Positions 23,270 through 44,145 are shown, numbered from the stretch's first letter. The stretch: DNA of 64,000 nucleotides from an uncultured Carboxylicivirga sp. (GCA_963668385.1 OY764327.1:5648724-5712723); one strand, 5' to 3'. A program made the numbers and translations. Notes: a model not told the origin generated them from the sequence alone.

Positions 23270-23745
23270 AGTGGAGTTAGTGGAGTAGTGGAGGATTATT
23301 GTTTTTCAAGCACTTACTACTCCACGCCACTCCACTCACTCCACAAGTTGATGATTAATTAATTGGCGCTTCGCCCAAACCCGACTTCATCTCTTTGCTC
23401 AAGCCGCAAGGGCTTTTCCTTTCTTCCTGCAGCCGAAGAAAGAAACAAAGAAGTCCGCCGACTGCACCACTCGCTTACCCACTATTTCCTTATTTTTTGA
23501 GACAGAAAGAACTCACTGCGGTCAAACAGCTTTCTATCTTATCAAAACATAAGAAAAGTGGGTCCCAAGCTGCGTTGCTAATGTCGGGTACTCAACTCGA
23601 AACACTAGCATTTTATAGTAACAACCTTTTATAGTGCAGGAGAATAAAGATCAATTTATTTCATACTCCACAGTTACTACACTCAAACTCCACACATAAA
23701 AACCTGTGAATCAATAAAACTCCACAACTACGCAAACTCTACAGT
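23270..23745. repeat. GTGGAG/CTCCAC short-repeat cluster, candidate replication origin
   Basis: 3x GTGGAG (23271-23293) facing 3x CTCCAC (23320-23345); further ACTCCAC copies at ~23665, 23687, 23719; lies between primase and DUF3987 genes. Confidence 0.5.
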
Positions 23746-30600: not shown

Positions 30601-31830
30601 ATGAAGCTTATGAGAAGTACTTTTAATGTTCTTTTTTTCATTAAAAAGAATGCAGAAAAAAAAGATGGAACGGCACCTGTTGTTGCAAGAATTACCATTA
30701 ATGGTAAAATGGCTCAGTTCAACACCAAGCAATTTATTAAACCGGAAGACTGGAGTGTTGATTTAGGAAAAGCCAAAGGCAGAAATGCGGAAGCCAAAAC
30801 TATTAATTCTGTTTTGGAAGAAATTAAAATTTCTATTCACGAAGCTTATAATGACCTGACCAGAAGAGACACATTAATAACAGCCGAAAAAATAAAAATC
30901 ACATTCTTAGGCATTGGGTTGGAGCAACACTTATTGTTGGAGCTTTTTGAAGAATGCAACAATACGTTAAAAACACAAGTTGGCATTACCAAATCAAAAG
31001 CTACCTATCAAAAAGCAGAAGTGTGTAAACGACATTTATCTGAATATTTAAAAATAGAACACAAATTATCGGATATTGATTTAAGGGATATCAATCACTC
31101 CTTCATTGTTGGGTTTGAAAACTTCCTTACCATTAAATGCCATTGCAACTTAAATACAAGCGCAAAATTTATGCAAAAATTCAAAAGCATAGTATTGCTT
31201 GCTCAAAAGAATGGATGGTTACTGAATGATCCCTTCGGCAACTATAAAATATCTTTAAAGAAGGTTGACAGGGGCTACCTAAATGACGATGAACTAAAAC
31301 GCATCATGCAAAAAAGCTTTGGTAGTGAACGGTTAGAGCGCATACGTGATATTTTTATTTTCTCGTGCTATACCGGACTTGCATATATTGATATTAAAAA
31401 CCTTAGGCAGGAACACATAACTAAAGGTTTTGACGGCAATTTATGGATAAACACAAAGCGCCAGAAAACATCCATAAAAACGGTTGTACCTCTACTGGAT
31501 ATAGCCCAATTAATCCTAGATAAATACAAAGGTTTGCCCAATGGTGTACTTTTACCAATTCCAACGAATCAAAAAACGAACCAATATTTGAAAGAAATTG
31601 CTGATGTCTGCGGTATTAATAAAAACCTTACGTTTCACTTGGCACTGCATACTTTTGCAACCACTGTTACACTATCAAAGGGTGTCCCTATTGAATCCGT
31701 TATTAAAATGCTTGGACATACCAATATTAAAACGACTCAAATTTATGCTCGTATTACCAATGAAAAGATTGGTGCAGACATTAAATTATTAGCGGAAAAG
31801 TTAAAGGTTTCAGAAGTAAGTTTAGCTTGA
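30601..31830 (+). CDS. Bacteroidetes-type site-specific integrase, probably inactive
   Basis: Arm-binding N-terminus (GTAPVVARITING), FSCYTGL, LGH, TQIY; HxxR reads HLAL. Confidence 0.9.
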   Translation: MKLMRSTFNVLFFIKKNAEKKDGTAPVVARITINGKMAQFNTKQFIKPEDWSVDLGKAKGRNAEAKTINSVLEEIKISIHEAYNDLTRRDTLITAEKIKITFLGIGLEQHLLLELFEECNNTLKTQVGITKSKATYQKAEVCKRHLSEYLKIEHKLSDIDLRDINHSFIVGFENFLTIKCHCNLNTSAKFMQKFKSIVLLAQKNGWLLNDPFGNYKISLKKVDRGYLNDDELKRIMQKSFGSERLERIRDIFIFSCYTGLAYIDIKNLRQEHITKGFDGNLWINTKRQKTSIKTVVPLLDIAQLILDKYKGLPNGVLLPIPTNQKTNQYLKEIADVCGINKNLTFHLALHTFATTVTLSKGVPIESVIKMLGHTNIKTTQIYARITNEKIGADIKLLAEKLKVSEVSLA

Positions 31831-36131: not shown

Positions 36132-36175
36132 TTATTTAGTTCTTTTATGACATTCCATTTTTTTATTCCAACCTG

Positions 36176-36183
36176 CAAATCTA
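36176..36183 (-). promoter_or_regulatory. Bacteroidetes -7 promoter box in front of the carboxylase operon
   Basis: Minus-strand TAGATTTG(CA) matches TAnnTTTG, 45 nt upstream of the start codon. Confidence 0.45.
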
Positions 36184-36527
36184 ATCTCTACATATAACAT
36201 TTCATACTAATGTGATTAATAAAATACAAAAGGGTGCATGATTAAATAAGCACATTACTACAACACACTTCGGGAATAATCGTTTAATCACACCCCCTAA
36301 TGCCTTAGTATAATTATGAATAGTTGCAGACGTGATAATAAAAACTGATAGTAATTATTGCCAGAATTTGGCTTTTAATTTTTAATGCTAAAACCGATGT
36401 ATTAATACGCATATTACAATTATTTGCTAATTAACATATAATACTATCGCGAAATAATGAGTAGGGGAATATTTTTAAATCCGATACCTGCTTTTTATCG
36501 CGAAAGCAAATATCATTCAAACACAAT

Positions 36528-36705
36528 AAGACAGGTTTCCTGGCTTTCCCGACTTTTAGCACCTTCCCATTCGGCGTTTCCGAACAGTGGTTATTCGCTA
36601 AAAGCACATACTATTATCATAGCACGAGATTACAGTTGCGCGTCAGCCCATGATTCACACATGGTTCCCTATTAAACCCTTTTTAAAGGGTATCTTAAAG
36701 TCAAA
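36528..36705 (-). promoter_or_regulatory. Cobalamin riboswitch 1
   Basis: Minus strand AATAGGGAA...GCGCAACTGTAA...CCACTG...GGGAAGG...AGCCAGGAAACCTG; TAnnTTTG box at 36724-36731. Confidence 0.88.
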
Positions 36706-36903
36706 ATTTGAATGAACGACGTGCAAAAGTAGTAAAATTATTAAACCTACCTATTTAATTAGTAATGGATATTTACTGCTATTTACATTTTGATTAAAAC
36801 ATAATTATGAATAATACCATAATCATTAAGAAACCGTGATTTGCCGACCATTGATACAACATTACCTTATTATCGTAAATTGATCAAAAGAATTTCAAAA
36901 TAT

Positions 36904-38268
36904 TCAACTCTTCTGAAGTTGTAATGCTACAGATAATTCAAAAAGCTATAGATATATATCCCCGCTGGGGATAAATACTCAACTTCAGTTAAGAGACAAA
37001 TACATCGCCTACGAGCATAAGCGCTCAACTTCGGAGAAGTTGCATATCTATAGAGTTGATAGATAGTAAGGGATAAGTGCAACTCCAGCGGAGTTGAATA
37101 GATTTTAGTACCCTTTAAAAAAATTCTACTAATCACCCACACATAACCACTTACAAATATCATTGATGTTAAGACACTTTTCTTTTTTTTGCCTCTAGCC
37201 GGCTGGCTTTTACTTTCTTCCTGCAGCCGAAGAAAGTAAACAAAGAAGACTGCGGCTGCATTAGGTCCGATCATTTGCTATTGTAACTCTTAAGTGCGGC
37301 CGGGTGATCTCCAAGCCAAGCTTGGAGCTTCCCGGTCTTACTAAAGATCTACTGCTAGTAAATAATCTCCCCTAATGAGGCAGAAAGAGAGCCGCCCATT
37401 AATTAATATGTAGAATTCTACACTTGATATTCTTAAAACACTTCAAACTAACCAAGCTGTAATACATCGAATGTGAGCACAAGAGCCCTACTTCAGAGAA
37501 GTTATATATCTATAGAGTTGATAGATAGTAAGAGATTGACACAACTCCAGCGGAGTTGAATGGAAATTAGTACCCTTTAAAAAAATGCTACTAATCACCC
37601 ACACATAACCACTTACAAATATCATTGATGTTAAGACACTTTTCTTTTTTTTGCCTCTAGCCGGCTGGCTTTTACTTTCTTCCTGCAGCCGAAGAAAGTA
37701 AACAAAGAAGACCGCGGCTGCATTAGGTCCGATCATTTGCTATTGTAACTCTTAAGTGCGGCCGGGTGATCTCCAAGCCAAGCTTGGAGCTTCCCGGTCT
37801 TACTAAAGATCTACTGCTAATAAATAATCTCCCCTAATGAGGCCGAAAGAGAGCCTAGCGTTAATTAATATGTAGAATTCTACACTTGATTTTCTTAAAA
37901 CACTTCAAACTAACCAAGCTGTAATATATCGCCAATGCTCACTATAACTCAACTTCAGAGAAGTTGCACATCTATAGAATTGATAAATAGTAAAAGATAA
38001 GTGTAACTCCAGCGGAGTTGAATAAAGGATAACGAACACATCAAAAACATTATTCTTCTTCTTTGTAAATTATCTCCCCTAATAAGGCCGAAAGAGATCC
38101 TAGCGTTAATTAATATGTAGAATTCTACACTTGATATTCTTAAAACACTACAAACTAACCAAGCTGTAATACATCGAATGTGGGCACAATACCCCTACTT
38201 CAGAGAAGTTGCATGTCTATAGAATTGATAAATAGTAAGAGATTGACGCAACTCCAGAGGTGTTGAAC
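36904..38268. repeat. Mosaic palindrome-rich repeat array 1 (462+462+245 nt + partial unit)
   Basis: Units start at CAACTTC/CTACTTC 37026, 37488, 37950, 38195; REP-like hairpins CAACTTC-AGA-GAAGTTG and CAACTCC-AGC-GGAGTTG. Confidence 0.92.
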
Positions 38269-38315
38269 AGAAATAAGCTATAAATCTCAACAAACTTATA
38301 TCTCATTAAAAAACA

Positions 38316-38828
38316 CTAAACCGTTTCGCCCAAAGAGGCTGCAGACGATTGCAAAACGGGCTTCTTCCTTTGAAACAAACACGTTTTATCCACCAACTGT
38401 TTATCCACAATCTGATAAAACCGTTGATTGGTATCAGAGCTATCCAACCCTCCACAAACTTCAATATAAGGCCCAAGCTTTATATAATCGAAATTGGTGA
38501 GCGAACCAAATTCCGAAAACTTCGGTTTGCCCGAGTACCAGGCTGTTTTCATTCGATTATCAGTTACTATCTTAATGTATTCGGCCAGATAATTCACCTG
38601 TTCTGGAGCATCATCACCCCCCATAAAACAAATGCAGGTCACGCCCGTTCCATAACCGTTCACAAGCGAATCGATTACTTGCTTAGTTAAGGGCTCGCCA
38701 ATATCGTTTTGAAGCCAGGGACTATGACATCCCCGGCATTTATTCGGACAATTGGCAATATTGATAGCCAACGTTATTTCGTTTGGCACCTCTTGAAATA
38801 CAATATTATAACTGTGATACTTTAGCAT
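38316..38828 (-). CDS. nrdG: Anaerobic ribonucleotide reductase activating enzyme
   Basis: Radical SAM CPNKCRGC; directly downstream of nrdD. Confidence 0.95.
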   Translation of the reverse strand: MLKYHSYNIVFQEVPNEITLAINIANCPNKCRGCHSPWLQNDIGEPLTKQVIDSLVNGYGTGVTCICFMGGDDAPEQVNYLAEYIKIVTDNRMKTAWYSGKPKFSEFGSLTNFDYIKLGPYIEVCGGLDSSDTNQRFYQIVDKQLVDKTCLFQRKKPVLQSSAASLGETV

Positions 38829-40896
38829 AATGTCGTTGCGTTTCTTCCACTTGACGGGCTTGCGAAAAATTACTTACACGTTTCATATAACCAATTATAC
38901 GGGTCAGATAATCGAGATTATGACTTTTACATTTAGGACATTCGCCCAGGTTGTTTTTATCGATATGACCACAATCGTTACATATAGTATTAGGGATATT
39001 AAAAGTAAAATAGTTACACCCTTCTTGTATGGCAATGCGTAACAATTGCTTGTACTGATCCTTACTTAAGTGCTCATCTAAATTCATATGCAAAGCCGAT
39101 CCTCCGGTTAAATGCTCGATGTACTTTTTACCATGCAAGCGAAATTTATCAATCACATTGGTATTTTCATCTTCCACCACATAGAAGTAGCTGTTATAAC
39201 AATCGCGCTTCACCACATAGCCGTCTTCTTTGTCCCATTTAGCATGCTTCACACCCACATTTTCGGCAGGAATCATCTCACAATTAAACATTACATCTTT
39301 GGTGCGGTATTTTTTATTGTACGACTCAATCAGCCCCAAAACAGTTTGCACAAACTCAGTATACTTATCATTATCACTAATTTCGATACCTAAGAATTCA
39401 GCAGCTTCGACCAAACCATTTACTCCAATGGTAAGATACTGACGATCCATATTGATATATCCGGCATCGAATAAAGGTAACATCCCTTTTTCGAGCATAT
39501 ACTTCAGGTTTTCGTTATACGACTTTTGCACTTTATGAACCAGATCAACCACCTCTTCGAGAAAGAACAGGTAATGCGTATTTTGTCGCGAAGCATCTTG
39601 AATACATCTATTTAGGTTGATGGTTAGTACACTCTTCGATCCGGTTGAAACACCTCCGGCACCCAAGGTATAACTAAATCCGTTATCAGTAATTTCGTTA
39701 CGCAAACGACAACAACTGCTCAACGAGTCGGCATTGTCGCTCATATAGGTAAAAAACGAATGCCCTTCGGCGTACATTTCGGCTGTAAAATCGCCGTATT
39801 CGGTATCTTTCACATCACCATTATCGCTTAACAAAGCCATGGTTTCGACCGGAAAAGTCAACACATTTTTAGTACGTTCGGCATTGAACCATTTCATAAA
39901 ACGCTTTTGTAACCAACTTAGCGAATTCCAATGTGGTTTGCTTCCGTTAGGAAAGATAAAATGCTCGAAAAGACTATCGAAGTAATATTTATCGTAATAC
40001 GAAATATTCCAGAAAACAGCCTGAAAATTGCGGGCTCCGGTTGGTTGGTTGATAGAATAAACAATCTGCTCAAAGCAGTCGGTTATGATTTTATCAATGG
40101 TTCGTTGTTTGGCCGATAAATCAACTACTTTATCGGCATGTAAGTAATAATCGTCGCCATACTCTAAACCAACAAAGTAATTCATGTACATCAGGAATTC
40201 GGGTGTAGCACAGGCGCCGCTCAACATGCTCGAAACCATAAAAACCATGTTTATAAATCCACCACAAAACGATTTTAGATTGGTAGGCGCCTTTGAGTTA
40301 CCACCTATCGACGAGGTACCACCAATTAACCATGGATACATAGTGATACTAGCACAATAGTTAGCCAGGCTGGTTTCGTCGTTTTTATAGATATAGTGTT
40401 GATTCAGTAAATCAACGTATCGATCCGATAATTCTTTGCCATACATCTCTTTAATACGATCGGTAAGCATACGACGATTCAAGCGTATGAAGTTCGATTT
40501 AGGCAACTCGCCAATTAAAGTGGTAATGTTTTTACTTTCAACATTGGCATTGGCATCGTATTTACTACCCGTAGCTGCGTTTTGCGCATTGCAATAATCC
40601 ATTAAAAATTCCAGTTTATCAAGCACTTCTCGATCTTCTAAATGCTGCTGGCGATACAACATATAAGCCTTGGCCACCGAATAATAACGCTCGGCCATCA
40701 GTGCCACTTCCACCTGATTTTGAATACCTTCAACAGTAATATCGTTGGTTATATTTACCCTGCATAAAATATTAGTAATCACCTCGTCGGTTGCAAAACT
40801 ACCCACCGACAAAAAAGCCTTGCGCAAAGCACTTTTTACTTTTTCGATCGAAAAAGCCTCTTTTTTCCCATCTCGTTTAATAATGTATGTTTCCAT
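38806..40896 (-). CDS. nrdD: Class III anaerobic ribonucleoside-triphosphate reductase
   Basis: ATP cone (IKRDG), SSCCRL, CNDCG/CPKC Zn site, TRIIGY glycyl-radical loop. Confidence 0.96.
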   Translation of the reverse strand: METYIIKRDGKKEAFSIEKVKSALRKAFLSVGSFATDEVITNILCRVNITNDITVEGIQNQVEVALMAERYYSVAKAYMLYRQQHLEDREVLDKLEFLMDYCNAQNAATGSKYDANANVESKNITTLIGELPKSNFIRLNRRMLTDRIKEMYGKELSDRYVDLLNQHYIYKNDETSLANYCASITMYPWLIGGTSSIGGNSKAPTNLKSFCGGFINMVFMVSSMLSGACATPEFLMYMNYFVGLEYGDDYYLHADKVVDLSAKQRTIDKIITDCFEQIVYSINQPTGARNFQAVFWNISYYDKYYFDSLFEHFIFPNGSKPHWNSLSWLQKRFMKWFNAERTKNVLTFPVETMALLSDNGDVKDTEYGDFTAEMYAEGHSFFTYMSDNADSLSSCCRLRNEITDNGFSYTLGAGGVSTGSKSVLTINLNRCIQDASRQNTHYLFFLEEVVDLVHKVQKSYNENLKYMLEKGMLPLFDAGYINMDRQYLTIGVNGLVEAAEFLGIEISDNDKYTEFVQTVLGLIESYNKKYRTKDVMFNCEMIPAENVGVKHAKWDKEDGYVVKRDCYNSYFYVVEDENTNVIDKFRLHGKKYIEHLTGGSALHMNLDEHLSKDQYKQLLRIAIQEGCNYFTFNIPNTICNDCGHIDKNNLGECPKCKSHNLDYLTRIIGYMKRVSNFSQARQVEETQRHYAKVSQL

Positions 40897-41028
40897 AGCT
40901 TATTGGTTTGAAAATAAATAATAAGGCTAAGCGAGAAAACACGCGCAAGTAAAGTGCAAACAAAGGGATACGAAAATTCGATTGCTACACCTATTGCTTT
41001 TCACCCGAAAGCCTGGTTTATTTTGTAT

Positions 41029-41200
41029 TTGGCAGGTCTTCTGACTTTCCTGATTTTTCAACCCCTTCCCAACCGCCTGGCAGCAGTCAGTGGCTTTTGT
41101 TGAAAAAATACATCCCGCAAAAACGAGACAGGATTACAGCTACGGGGATAGTTCTTGAATTTCACAAGATTCCCTTTTAATCCGTTACGAACCCAATACG
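41029..41200 (-). promoter_or_regulatory. Cobalamin riboswitch 2 (nrdDG leader)
   Basis: Minus strand AAAAGGGAA...CCCCGTAGCTGTAA...CCACTG...GGGAAGG...AGTCAGAAGACCTGCC. Confidence 0.9.
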
Positions 41201-41440
41201 AATACAAAGAAATGAATAGTGATTTTAAATGTCTACCAACTCAAAAAATAGTTATTAAATAGATATTAACAGGGCACAATTCTCTAACCCTCTAACTATC
41301 TAACAAAAAACACCATAAGTAGATATCACAAGAGCTAAATACTGTAAAAATTAGTGTAAAGGGTGGATTTTCAAGCCAATTTGGCGAAAATTTTCGAAAA
41401 GATTATTACCTCGTTTAACCTACTATTAACGCAATAATAT

Positions 41441-43010
41441 GCAACTCCTCTGGAGTTGTAATTCTTCAATAAATTATTGAAACTATAGATATATATCCCC
41501 GCTGGGGATAATGACACAGCTGAAGAGAAGTTTTCGTTCTACAGAATGGATAATGAGCACCTTTGAATACACCTCCCTTATAGTTATTATATGCCAAACT
41601 ATAATACACCCGCCAGACATTATAGCCCTACTTCAGAAAAGTTGCATATCTATAGAATTGATGTATAGACACTTTTCTTTTTTGCCTCTAGCCGGCTGGC
41701 TTTTACTTTCTTCCTGCAGCCGAAGAAAGTAAACAAAGAAGGCCGCGGCTGCATTAGGTCCGATCATTTGCTATTGTAAATCTTAAGTGCGGCCGGGTGA
41801 TCTCCAAGCCAAGCTTGGAGCTTCCCGGTCTTACTAAAGATCTACTGCTAGTAAATAATCTCCCCTAATAAAGCCGAAAGAGATCCTAGCGTTAATTAAT
41901 ATGTAGAATTCTACACTTGATTTTCTTAAAACACCACAAACTAACAAACTGTAATACATCGAATGTGGGCACAAGAGCCCAACTTCAGAGAAGTTGCATG
42001 TCTATAGAATTGATAAATAGTAAGAGATTGACACAACTCCTGAGGTGTTGAATAAAGGATAACGAACACATCAAAAACATTATTCTTCTTCCTTATAAAT
42101 TATCTCCCCTAATAAAGCCGAAAGAGATCCTAGCGTTAATTAATATGTAGAATTCTACACTTGATATTCTTAAAACACTTCAAACTAACCAAGCTGTAAT
42201 ATATCGCCAATGCTCACTATAACTCAACTTCAGAGAAGTTGCACATCTATAGAATTGATAAATAGTAAGAGATTGACACAACTCCAGCGGAGTTGAATAA
42301 AGGATAACGAACACATCAATAACATTATTCTTCTTCTTTGTAAATTATCTCCCCTAATGAGGCCGAAATAGATCCTAGCGTTAAATAATATGTAGAATTC
42401 TACACTTGATATTCTTAAAAAACCGCAAACTAACAAACTGTAATACATCGAATGTGGGCACAATACCCCAACTTCAGAGAAGTTGCATATCTATAGAATT
42501 GATAAATAGTAAAAGATAAGTGTAACTCCACCGGAGTTGAATAAAGGATAACGAACACATCAAAAACATTATTCTTCTTCCTTGTAAATAATCTCCCCTA
42601 ATAAAGCCGAAAGAGAGCCTAGCGTTAATTAATATGTAGAATTCTACACTTGATTTTCTTAAAACACCACAAACTAACCAAGCTGTAATACATCGAATGT
42701 GGCCACAAGAGCCCAACTTCAGAGAAGTTGCATATCTATAGAATCGTCAAATAGTTAGGGATTACAACAACTCCAGCGGAGTTGAATATAAATTAGTACC
42801 CTTTAAAAATTCTACTAATCACCCACACATAACCACTTACAAATATCATTGATATTAAGACACTTTTCTTTTTTGCCTCTAGCCGGCTGGCTTTTACTTT
42901 CTTCCTGCAGCCGAAGAAAGTAAACAAAGAAAGCCGCGACTGCATCCGATATAGCCTTATATTTAGGTGTAGAATTCTACACTTGAAGTTCTCATATCGC
43001 TACAAATTAG
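41441..43010. repeat. Mosaic palindrome-rich repeat array 2 (five units, same family as array 1)
   Basis: Units start at 41628, 41980, 42225, 42469, 42714 (244-245 nt period); same inverted left-end unit as array 1. Confidence 0.92.
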
Positions 43011-43019
43011 CCATGCTAT

Positions 43020-43280
43020 AAATAGATTTCTTACCAGCCGCGAAAACAGCCAAAAAAACCGTCAGGTTTGTTGCCAACGGAGAAAACAGCCGAAAAAAAC
43101 CATCAGTTTTGCTGCCTTTGGCGAAAACAGCCGAAAAAACCATCAAGATCGTTGCCAACAGAGAAAGCAGCAAAATAAACCGTCAATTTTGTTGCCAGCG
43201 GAGAAAGCAGCAAAAAAAACCGTCAGGTTTGTTGCCAACGAAGAAAACAGACAAAAAAACCGTCAAATTTGTTGCCAACG
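43020..43280. repeat. Degenerate ~40-nt tandem repeat, about six copies
   Basis: Consensus approx AAAACAGCCAAAAAAACCGTCAGGTTTGTTGCCAACGGAG. Confidence 0.85.
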
Positions 43281-43659
43281 CTTGTTGAGCTTATGTTTGA
43301 TAAACAAAATATGGTTTGAACAAATTAAAAACCATATAAATAACACCACAAACGATAGTATTATTAGACCATAGAAGGTAATTTATCCAACACATACCCC
43401 AACATAAAATATAAGCTATCAACAGCTTGTTTATAACTTAGCCCCCATTTGATTATATCTATATTTGATTTATGTTTACTTTTAATGTGCCTTATTGGGT
43501 TAAATCGTTTTTTATACGTTTAAATTCATTAGACACTTATAATTATTTAAAAACGTTTTTATACCAATAAACCAAGTGATTAATAGAGTTAAGAAACTAA
43601 TGACGCTTATAAAGTAGTTAGCGGTCAGCAAAAAGTGCTAACTGTCAAGTAAATCTCAA

Positions 43660-44145
43660 ATGAATCATAATCGCTTAGACAAAAAAGAATTAAACAAGTT
43701 AAAGGGACAAACAGACCAACCAGATATAAATCAAAACCATTTTATTCTTCGTTTTATAGACTTTGATTTTGACCCGAAAATAATTTCTGATAGACTTGGA
43801 CTAAAACCTAGTTCGTCAGGACAAAAAGGTGAAGAATATTACATTGGGACTAAAAAAATACCAAGAATCAGAGATTGTAATCATTGGGACATAGAACAAA
43901 AGATAATATCTAACGATTTTATTGGTGACTTGCTTGATCTCTTTTTCAAGGAAATTATAATACCAAGAATTGAACTTTTAAAGGAATTAAAAAGTCAGTG
44001 TAAAATACTCAGATTAACAATGGTTCAATACTATTACACTGGACATAATCCTGGTTTTACTCTGACTAATGAACAAATTAAAATATTGGCAGACATTAAT
44101 GCGGAAATTGATATTGATGTCTATTGTTTATGCGAAGACAATTAA
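43660..44145 (+). CDS. DUF4279-like protein (cassette-like gene)
   Basis: FDPKIISDRLGLKP, PGFTLTNEQIKILADINAEIDIDVY. Confidence 0.75.
   Translation: MNHNRLDKKELNKLKGQTDQPDINQNHFILRFIDFDFDPKIISDRLGLKPSSSGQKGEEYYIGTKKIPRIRDCNHWDIEQKIISNDFIGDLLDLFFKEIIIPRIELLKELKSQCKILRLTMVQYYYTGHNPGFTLTNEQIKILADINAEIDIDVYCLCEDN

Follow-up and report, generated by a model that had tools for sequence, protein, structure and literature searches.

The genes nrdD and nrdG (nrdDG) of an uncultured Carboxylicivirga sp. lie between two arrays of palindrome-rich repeats, and the question raised by this locus is what these arrays are and how they came to stand on both sides of the same genes. The locus was analyzed within a 64,000-nt stretch of the genome (GCA_963668385.1, OY764327.1:5648724-5712723; hereafter the window, in whose coordinates positions are given unless a genome position is named). 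Rather than a novel gene or RNA machine, the arrays are probably locally amplified, noncoding mosaics, resembling bacterial interspersed mosaic elements (BIMEs), of intergenic repeat modules already present in the genome. An original prediction, made from the sequence alone, had described two homologous mosaic arrays of 245/462-nt units around nrdDG. This description was borne out by Tandem Repeats Finder, which reported a period of 462 at 36999-38024 (2.2 copies, 90% matches), a period of 245 at 37821-38267, and a period of 245/489 at 41851-42788 (3.8 copies), and by a repeat search that put all modules in register across both arrays. The nine units counted earlier were likewise recovered, four in array 1 (long, long, short, and partial) and five in array 2 (long, three short, and a truncated long). 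A full unit consists of a doublet of repetitive extragenic palindromic (REP) hairpins, a long middle (here termed L) or a short one, and a tail. The arrays are laid out as follows:

36899..38290, plus strand: array 1, a head and then four units of 462, 462, 245, and 106 nt, the last partial
36899..36993, plus strand: head of array 1, with REP hairpins CAACTCT-TCT-GAAGTTG and TATCCCC-GCT-GGGGATA and the CTATAGA tag inverted
37016..37477, plus strand: unit 1.1, long (REP doublet, L, and tail)
37478..37939, plus strand: unit 1.2, long (REP doublet, L, and tail)
37940..38184, plus strand: unit 1.3, short (REP doublet, 51-nt short middle, and tail)
38185..38290, plus strand: unit 1.4, partial (REP doublet alone)
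41436..43021, plus strand: array 2, a head and then five units
41436-41530, plus strand: head of array 2, the same head as in array 1
41618-41969, plus strand: first unit of array 2, long (truncated doublet, L, and tail)
41970-42214, 42215-42458, and 42459-42703, plus strand: the three short units of array 2
42704-43021, plus strand: last unit of array 2, long (truncated L and degenerate tail)

The first hairpin region occurs in ten copies over both arrays. Long middles lie at 37180, 37642, and 41673, with a truncated one at 42843, and the short units retain just the last ~35 nt of L, behind the 51-nt filler. Both arrays open, as had been noticed, with the same inverted end unit, a 95-nt head common to 36899 and 41436 that is 78% identical between them and in which CTATAGATATATATCCCCGCTGGGGATAA is identical; the heads stand in direct orientation at both array starts, and the array ends differ. 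The variant segments that precede the units are of three mildly different types, which in both arrays follow one another as CACAAGAGCC, CACTATAACT, and then CACAATACCC, the order restarting in array 2 after the third type, exactly as predicted. A CRISPR-like nature of these segments was rejected, because the variants number only three, differ mildly, and recur in one fixed order.

The identity seen between the arrays matches that within each of them (best stretch between them, 644 nt at 91%; longest exact match, 102 nt). Unit identities also cross from one array to the other, the tails of units 1.2 and 2.2 being 96% identical and the doublets of units 1.3 and 2.4 being 95% identical, which is what a block copy followed by gene conversion would give. 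An assembly artifact, a possibility raised with the original prediction, is unlikely, because the genome was assembled as a single 6.27-Mb contig and the units differ among themselves by 5 to 15% and so are not collapsed or expanded identical copies. Open reading frames (ORFs) inside the arrays had no Pfam or other family match, in keeping with the earlier statement that no coding feature explains the arrays.

Among the modules of the unit, the tail alone is locus specific. The module that had been described as shared is the REP doublet, which has ~20 further copies in the genome, and the long middle is an unrelated dispersed element. The proposed REP/BIME/REPIN-like character therefore stands insofar as a Y1 transposase gene lies among hairpins of the same type (see below), but not as a single “higher-order element,” since L is dispersed independently and the doublet recurs elsewhere. 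The doublet occupies the first ~80 nt of a unit and comprises the hairpins CAACTTC-AGA-GAAGTTG and CAACTCC-AGC-GGAGTTG, with 7-bp stems and 3-nt loops (consensus, CAACTYC-NNN-GRAGTTG), joined by a CAYATNTATAGA tag plus a spacer of ~25 nt. Hairpins of this type number 66 in the genome, 59 of them intergenic, compared with ~2 per 2 Mb in shuffled sequence, and the tagged motif has 30 occurrences here and none in the reversed control. Stem position 6 covaries without exception (39 AACTCC/GGAGTT, 25 AACTTC/GAAGTT, and 0 mixed pairs). Neither a GTAG nor a CGTC tetranucleotide is present at the end of the doublet hairpins, and in the array units GTAG occurs only in the tail palindrome. With respect to BIME features, the REPs are regularly spaced and separated by defined linkers; the tag is inverted in the head alone, and both hairpins have the same polarity within units. 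A related species (G012) carries a four-hairpin composite REP element of ~170 nt, with identical copies at contig ends, and the array head plus the first doublet follows the same grammar.

Other REP-bearing tandem arrays, with different unit sequences, were found at at least five loci of the genome (0.195, 0.424, 2.346, 2.639, and 3.689 Mb), one of them 2.4 kb long; the array phenomenon is therefore genome-wide rather than specific to nrdDG. The ORF-poor, hairpin-rich tandem arrays at genome positions 2638900-2641600 and 3689000-3690900 have units of ~437 nt (5 to 6 repeats at the first locus), each with a REP-type hairpin (TAACTCC-GGA-GGAGTT) and a AATATTAATAGC tag.

The tail, of 125 nt, was found only in these arrays and was absent from the 30 related genomes in which it was sought. 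Eight copies carry the palindrome TGTAGAATTCTACA, which is invariant in 8/8 tails while the surrounding sequence drifts; 8 of the 10 genomic occurrences of GTAGAATTCTAC are within the arrays.

L is a structured element of ~200 to 250 nt with sharp boundaries and ~27 other genomic copies. It consists of a small GC hairpin, a motif of the class II intrastrand-triplex type, and a 135-nt hairpin with the invariant apex AAGTGCGGCCGGGTGAT...CTTCCCGGTCTTAC. Its copies in the arrays are the following:

37191..37393, plus strand: L copy 1, with the GC hairpin, triplex-type motif, and 135-nt hairpin
37653..37855, plus strand: L copy 2, 98.8% identical to copy 1
41684..41886, plus strand: L copy 3, 95.7% identical to copy 2
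42875..42945, plus strand: L copy 4, truncated past the triplex-type motif

The triplex-type motif of the array copies reads CTTTCTTC/GAAGAAAG/CAAAGAAG, with (C)AAAGAAG as the third segment, and the 5' module has the class II layout of a pyrimidine arm, a loop, a purine arm, and a mirror purine strand. Across 73 copies, the three segments vary together (AAGAAA, AAAAAA, and GAAGAAA variants). In the 135-nt hairpin, the arms are replaced by compensatory changes and the apex never varies: double changes were seen in 17 of 25 pairs, with 168 double-changed cells compared with 49 in shuffles, and the covariation score was 0.44 compared with at most 0.11 for slid partners. A 45-nt apex, which includes a fixed G-T pair, is invariant over at least two orders, and a 29-nt core is exact across two orders. 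The exact core AAGTGCGGCCGGGTGAT...CTTCCCGGTCTT is carried by many marine members of the Bacteroidales and Flavobacteriales and was found on at least 120 contigs from Marinilabiliaceae, Marinifilaceae, Prolixibacteraceae, Salinivirgaceae, and Flavobacteriales, including the genera Carboxylicivirga, Saccharicrinis, Ancylomarina, Labilibaculum, Marinifilum, Roseimarinus, and Draconibacterium, as well as several lineages of Flavobacteriales. The core was not found in viral contigs, nor L in plasmids. A typical L copy had no Rfam match at E ≤ 10, and a literature search, including one by sequence string, gave no match. When a covariance model (R1) was run over 300 Bacteroidota genomes, matches were obtained in its own genome only, an absence elsewhere that is uninformative because only 11 candidates were scored for each genome.

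The reverse complement of L lies 16 to 50 nt past a stop codon, in the direction of the gene, at 21 of the 27 dispersed loci. A replication-direction rule fits 20 of the 27, and the two rules are inseparable because the discordant cases split 6 to 5. No neighboring protein family was enriched around L at 120 loci, and a role for L as a pathway-specific cis-regulatory leader was rejected, the downstream genes being functionally unrelated. At one locus, L is present in C. linearis and absent here, with intergenic DNA too diverged to define ends or a target duplication. Two further observations concern the 5' module. An L at genome position ~3521100 is nearly identical to its C. linearis ortholog (L031) save for an inverted 8-nt loop of the triplex hairpin (TCTTGATA versus TATCAAGA), a hairpin-loop inversion. 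In addition, window positions 23390-23466 hold a stand-alone 5' module (GC hairpin and triplex-type motif) that lacks the long hairpin and shares the CTTTCTTC/GAAGAAAG/CAAAGAAG variant with the array copies.

The prediction had pointed to a RAYT (REP-associated tyrosine transposase) or IS200-like transposase flanked by the same REPs, and a gene of this kind was found. The genome contains one IS200-like Y1 transposase gene (genome positions 4863982-4864446), which encodes the HUH and YxxxQ motifs, matches Pfam Y1_Tnp (1.3e-23) and the IS200 transposase model of NCBIfam (NF033573 transpos_IS200; 59.4 bits, cut-off 55), and has REP hairpins of the same type on both sides. Three other species of the genus (G017, G013, and G012) have orthologs, with identities of 82%, 81%, and 67%, and there too the gene is surrounded by xxACTCC/GGAGTxx-type REP hairpins in doublets or clusters; in G017 the doublets around the gene are inverted and the neighboring gene is conserved, and in G012 the gene lies inside a REP cluster. 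Judged from this sequence context, the Y1 transposase at 4.864 Mb is likely the partner of the REP doublets. The genome also has three canonical RAYTs (NCBIfam NF047646; genome positions 535506-536072, 854951-855505, and 3981039-3981587), each with its own, different flanking REP type, and one of these types carries GTAG heads (GGTAGTT-TGT-AACTACC).

The arrays are set among the following features, all on the minus strand:

36513..36712, minus strand: cobalamin riboswitch 1 (Rfam match), preceding a carboxylase operon
36731-36724, minus strand: Bacteroidetes-type -7 box (TAnnTTTG), between riboswitch 1 and array 1
38316..38828, minus strand: nrdG, activating enzyme (Fer4_12 domain)
38806..40896, minus strand: nrdD (NRDD and ATP-cone domains)
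41014..41211, minus strand: cobalamin riboswitch 2 (Rfam match), the nrdDG leader, preceding nrdD
43027..43299, minus strand: six 40-nt repeats abutting array 2, each with a hairpin and a T-run; a separate family

With respect to the minus strand, there is a cobalamin riboswitch downstream of each array, and array 1 has the riboswitch 1 promoter on one side and the nrdG stop codon on the other. The position of the -7 box, between riboswitch 1 and array 1, puts the arrays upstream of the riboswitch 1 promoter and outside the leader. Comparison of the two riboswitches and of their riboswitch-to-array spacers revealed no homology, likeness beginning exactly at the array head, and homologous spacers were accordingly rejected. 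No transposase was found within ~5 kb of the arrays, as had been stated; the only nearby recombinase, a tyrosine integrase (30601-31830), belongs to a defense island distinct from the arrays. That defense and toxin-antitoxin island, at 427-31830, encodes HipA, an AlpA-like helix-turn-helix protein, DUF3987, and AbiEi/AbiEii, among others, and is closed by the integrase, which is of the Bacteroidetes type (Arm-DNA-bind_5, SAM_5, and Phage_integrase domains); the stand-alone L module at 23390-23466 falls inside it. The six repeats at 43027-43299 resemble a row of terminators, and similar arrays are present at genome positions 1741076-1741422 and 3315607-3315905.

Comparison with relatives placed the arrays late in the history of the locus. 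nrdD is accessory: of the 18 genomes of the genus, 2 carry it. In C. linearis FB218, the segment from nrdG to just past riboswitch 2 is a 97.6% identical block that adjoins a riboswitch 1 homolog (87%), and no array was found on either side of it; the arrays are thus recent and dispensable for nrdDG and the riboswitches. The carboxylase operon is 78% identical between the two genomes. Dispersed REP and L copies are 78 to 92% identical to their nearest paralogs, whereas the array copies are 90 to 99% identical, which indicates that the arrays grew by local duplication of old modules and not by fresh insertions. A single array split by the insertion of nrdDG was rejected, since both arrays keep the same head. 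In C. linearis (L146), a gene for a membrane protein of ~540 amino acids lies between the riboswitch 1 homolog and the carboxylase operon; it is absent here (window 36132-36731), and riboswitch 1 may therefore have lost its original target in this genome. The reverse complement of L146 contains, at 1235-1464, a different dispersed repeat of ~230 nt that has at least 30 copies here at 85 to 95% identity (e.g., genome positions 3279910-3280139).

The course of events that we favor for the arrays would have begun with the spread of REP doublets as single-stranded DNA by the Y1 enzyme, by analogy with RAYT and IS200 enzymes. Unequal recombination or replication slippage would then have multiplied a composite in which a REP cluster and L were joined to local sequence, the whole array, head included, would have been copied once to the other side of nrdDG, and gene conversion between the two array copies may have produced the mosaic of long and short units. 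As to their effect, the arrays, being rich in hairpins, likely act as a terminator or insulator zone that separates transcription units. Judging from their sequence, these direct repeats of 1.4 to 1.6 kb would also likely permit RecA-dependent deletion or amplification of the accessory cassette of nrdDG and its riboswitch.

Several results weigh against this account. The Y1 protein matched the IS200 model only and did not reach the curated RAYT model (NF047646). Across the genus, motif counts do not track close Y1 orthologs: one genome (G015) has 14 motif copies and only a 39% identical Y1 homolog, and another (G009) has a 68% identical ortholog and no strict match to the motif. With ~30 to 66 copies (tens, not hundreds), the REP family is a small one, below the REP/RAYT norm of usually >100 per genome, and this genome showed no sign of recent transposition of the REP or L family. 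No partner enzyme for L was found, the DUF559 loci here being flanked by other repeats and the RAYTs having REPs of their own. Finally, a second Bacteroidetes-type -7 box (TAAGTTTG; 38298, minus strand) is directed into array 1.

A more ambitious joint reading, which we hold only tentatively and regard as doubtful, takes L, as a structured nucleic-acid element of Bacteroidota not described before, to be either a folded single-stranded DNA substrate for an enzyme or a mobile terminator, with the REP and L hairpins, possibly together with Y1, driving local amplification and bracketing or mobilizing nrdDG.

It is rather unlikely that the arrays exist to make RNA, that is, that minus-strand transcription, by read-through from nrdDG or from the box at 38298, yields processed, unit-length structured RNAs, e.g., for regulation by B12 or anaerobiosis. 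Besides that box, which aims into array 1, the folding of unit 1.2 speaks for such RNAs: it folds better than shuffled sequence as plus-strand DNA (z = -3.5) and much better as minus-strand RNA (z = -4.1). So do the strong covariation of the L hairpin and the orientation of L, whose reverse complement in array 1 is codirectional with the upstream genes, as at the 21 dispersed loci. The covariation itself, however, is of an unusual kind for a selected RNA helix, with wobble pairs in only 6 of 920 cells of the covarying arms, and the two invariant non-Watson-Crick pairs of L are G-T on the plus strand and would be A-C mismatches in a minus-strand RNA. A hairpin at the DNA level, or in the L-sense strand, therefore fits better than a typical RNA helix, and a strand test on the wobble pairs favored neither strand after correction for base composition. 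Moreover, Rfam searches over 36300-43700 found nothing but the two cobalamin riboswitches at E ≤ 5, both riboswitch promoters are downstream of the arrays, the sister species has the same nrdDG and riboswitches without arrays, and the genes beside L copies are functionally unrelated.

Another improbable alternative is that the arrays are the ends of a composite mobile unit that carries nrdDG and its riboswitch and moves by circle excision or by Y1-mediated copying from the head. Such a unit would account for the accessory status of nrdDG, for a block 97.6% identical to that of C. linearis beside flanking genes at ~78%, for the same head opening both arrays in direct orientation with differing ends, and for the long, nearly identical stretches common to both arrays. 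The C. linearis block, however, lies at the same place beside riboswitch 1 without an array, and the region of high identity stops 72 and 165 nt inside the inner edges of the arrays rather than at the edges. Nor is the block exceptional, because many other regions of the two genomes are 96 to 98% identical. The genome contains no second copy of the unit. IS200-type enzymes are not known to mobilize composites of 4.5 kb.

Slightly less probable still is a purely neutral minisatellite, in which slippage duplicated DNA that happened to hold old repeat relics, with Y1 and the hairpins uninvolved. The age of the dispersed REP and L copies, the restriction of the tail to this locus, the lack of arrays in relatives, and the relationships among units, which resemble the products of unequal crossing-over and gene conversion, are all compatible with it. 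Against it, arrays with REP hairpins of the same kind and different units at five or more other loci suggest a link between the hairpins and local amplification, and TGTAGAATTCTACA is invariant in eight tails amid drifting surroundings. That the hairpins are attC-like sites of an integron-like cassette array is most improbable: L is indeed a long imperfect hairpin with Watson-Crick-only covariation that usually lies just past a stop codon in fixed orientation, but RYYYAAC/GTTRRRY core sites are absent, the conserved apex and variable arms are the reverse of attC, the copies are scattered round the chromosome behind large housekeeping-type genes, and the only nearby recombinase is the Arm-DNA-bind_5 integrase at the end of the separate island, not IntI.

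Taken as locally amplified mosaics, the arrays would extend REP/RAYT-type biology to marine Bacteroidota, with an IS200-like partner instead of a canonical RAYT, and would show that REP-type hairpins can seed kilobase-scale tandem arrays. The placement of a B12-regulated accessory nrdDG between recombinable direct repeats would provide a straightforward way for these genes to be lost or amplified. The most novel component is the L family, which may matter more than the arrays and, if a dedicated enzyme or a terminator role exists, would represent a new class of repeat in bacteria.

Among known repeats, ERIC/IRU and Correia (CREE) elements are imperfect palindromic intergenic repeats of 100 to 160 nt. 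L resembles them in being a long imperfect palindrome between co-oriented genes, with an orientation bias and no coding capacity; it differs in its exact 29-nt core across two orders and the compensatory changes in its arms, and no terminal inverted repeats or target duplications are definable for it. The 5' module of L, with its pyrimidine arm, loop, purine arm, and mirror purine strand, resembles the PIT/BoxC/TMECO triplex motifs (Holder 2015, PMC4666352). Unlike those motifs, it is A/T-rich rather than G/C-rich and is joined to a 135-nt hairpin whose apex is invariant, and the genome has no linked DUF559 gene. The arrays as a whole recall the BrickBuilt miniature inverted-repeat transposable element of Porphyromonas gingivalis (Klein 2015, PMC4596501), likewise a noncoding, intergenic, species-specific tandem array of Bacteroidota that lies between a leader and a tail near promoters. 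The BrickBuilt unit, however, is 23 nt long and the element is dispersed 19 times, whereas here the whole array is confined to one locus, where it occurs twice, and only its modules are dispersed.

The closest comparison is with the REP/REPIN sequences and their RAYTs (Y1/HUH) and the BIMEs of enterobacteria and pseudomonads (Nunvar 2010, PMC2817692; Bertels and Rainey 2011, PMC3116915). The doublet hairpins carry neither the GTAG nor the CGTC head of previously described REPs (Di Nocera 2013, PMC3733652), and the units, at 245 or 462 nt, are far larger than those of BIMEs and enclose an unrelated 200-nt structured element. The family is also small, numbering tens of copies, its enzyme is of the IS200 type rather than a curated RAYT, and its host is a marine member of the Bacteroidota. 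What is shared with the REP/RAYT systems is the short extragenic hairpin doublet, the single-copy, syntenic Y1 gene between inverted copies of it, and the formation of mosaic clusters with other motifs.

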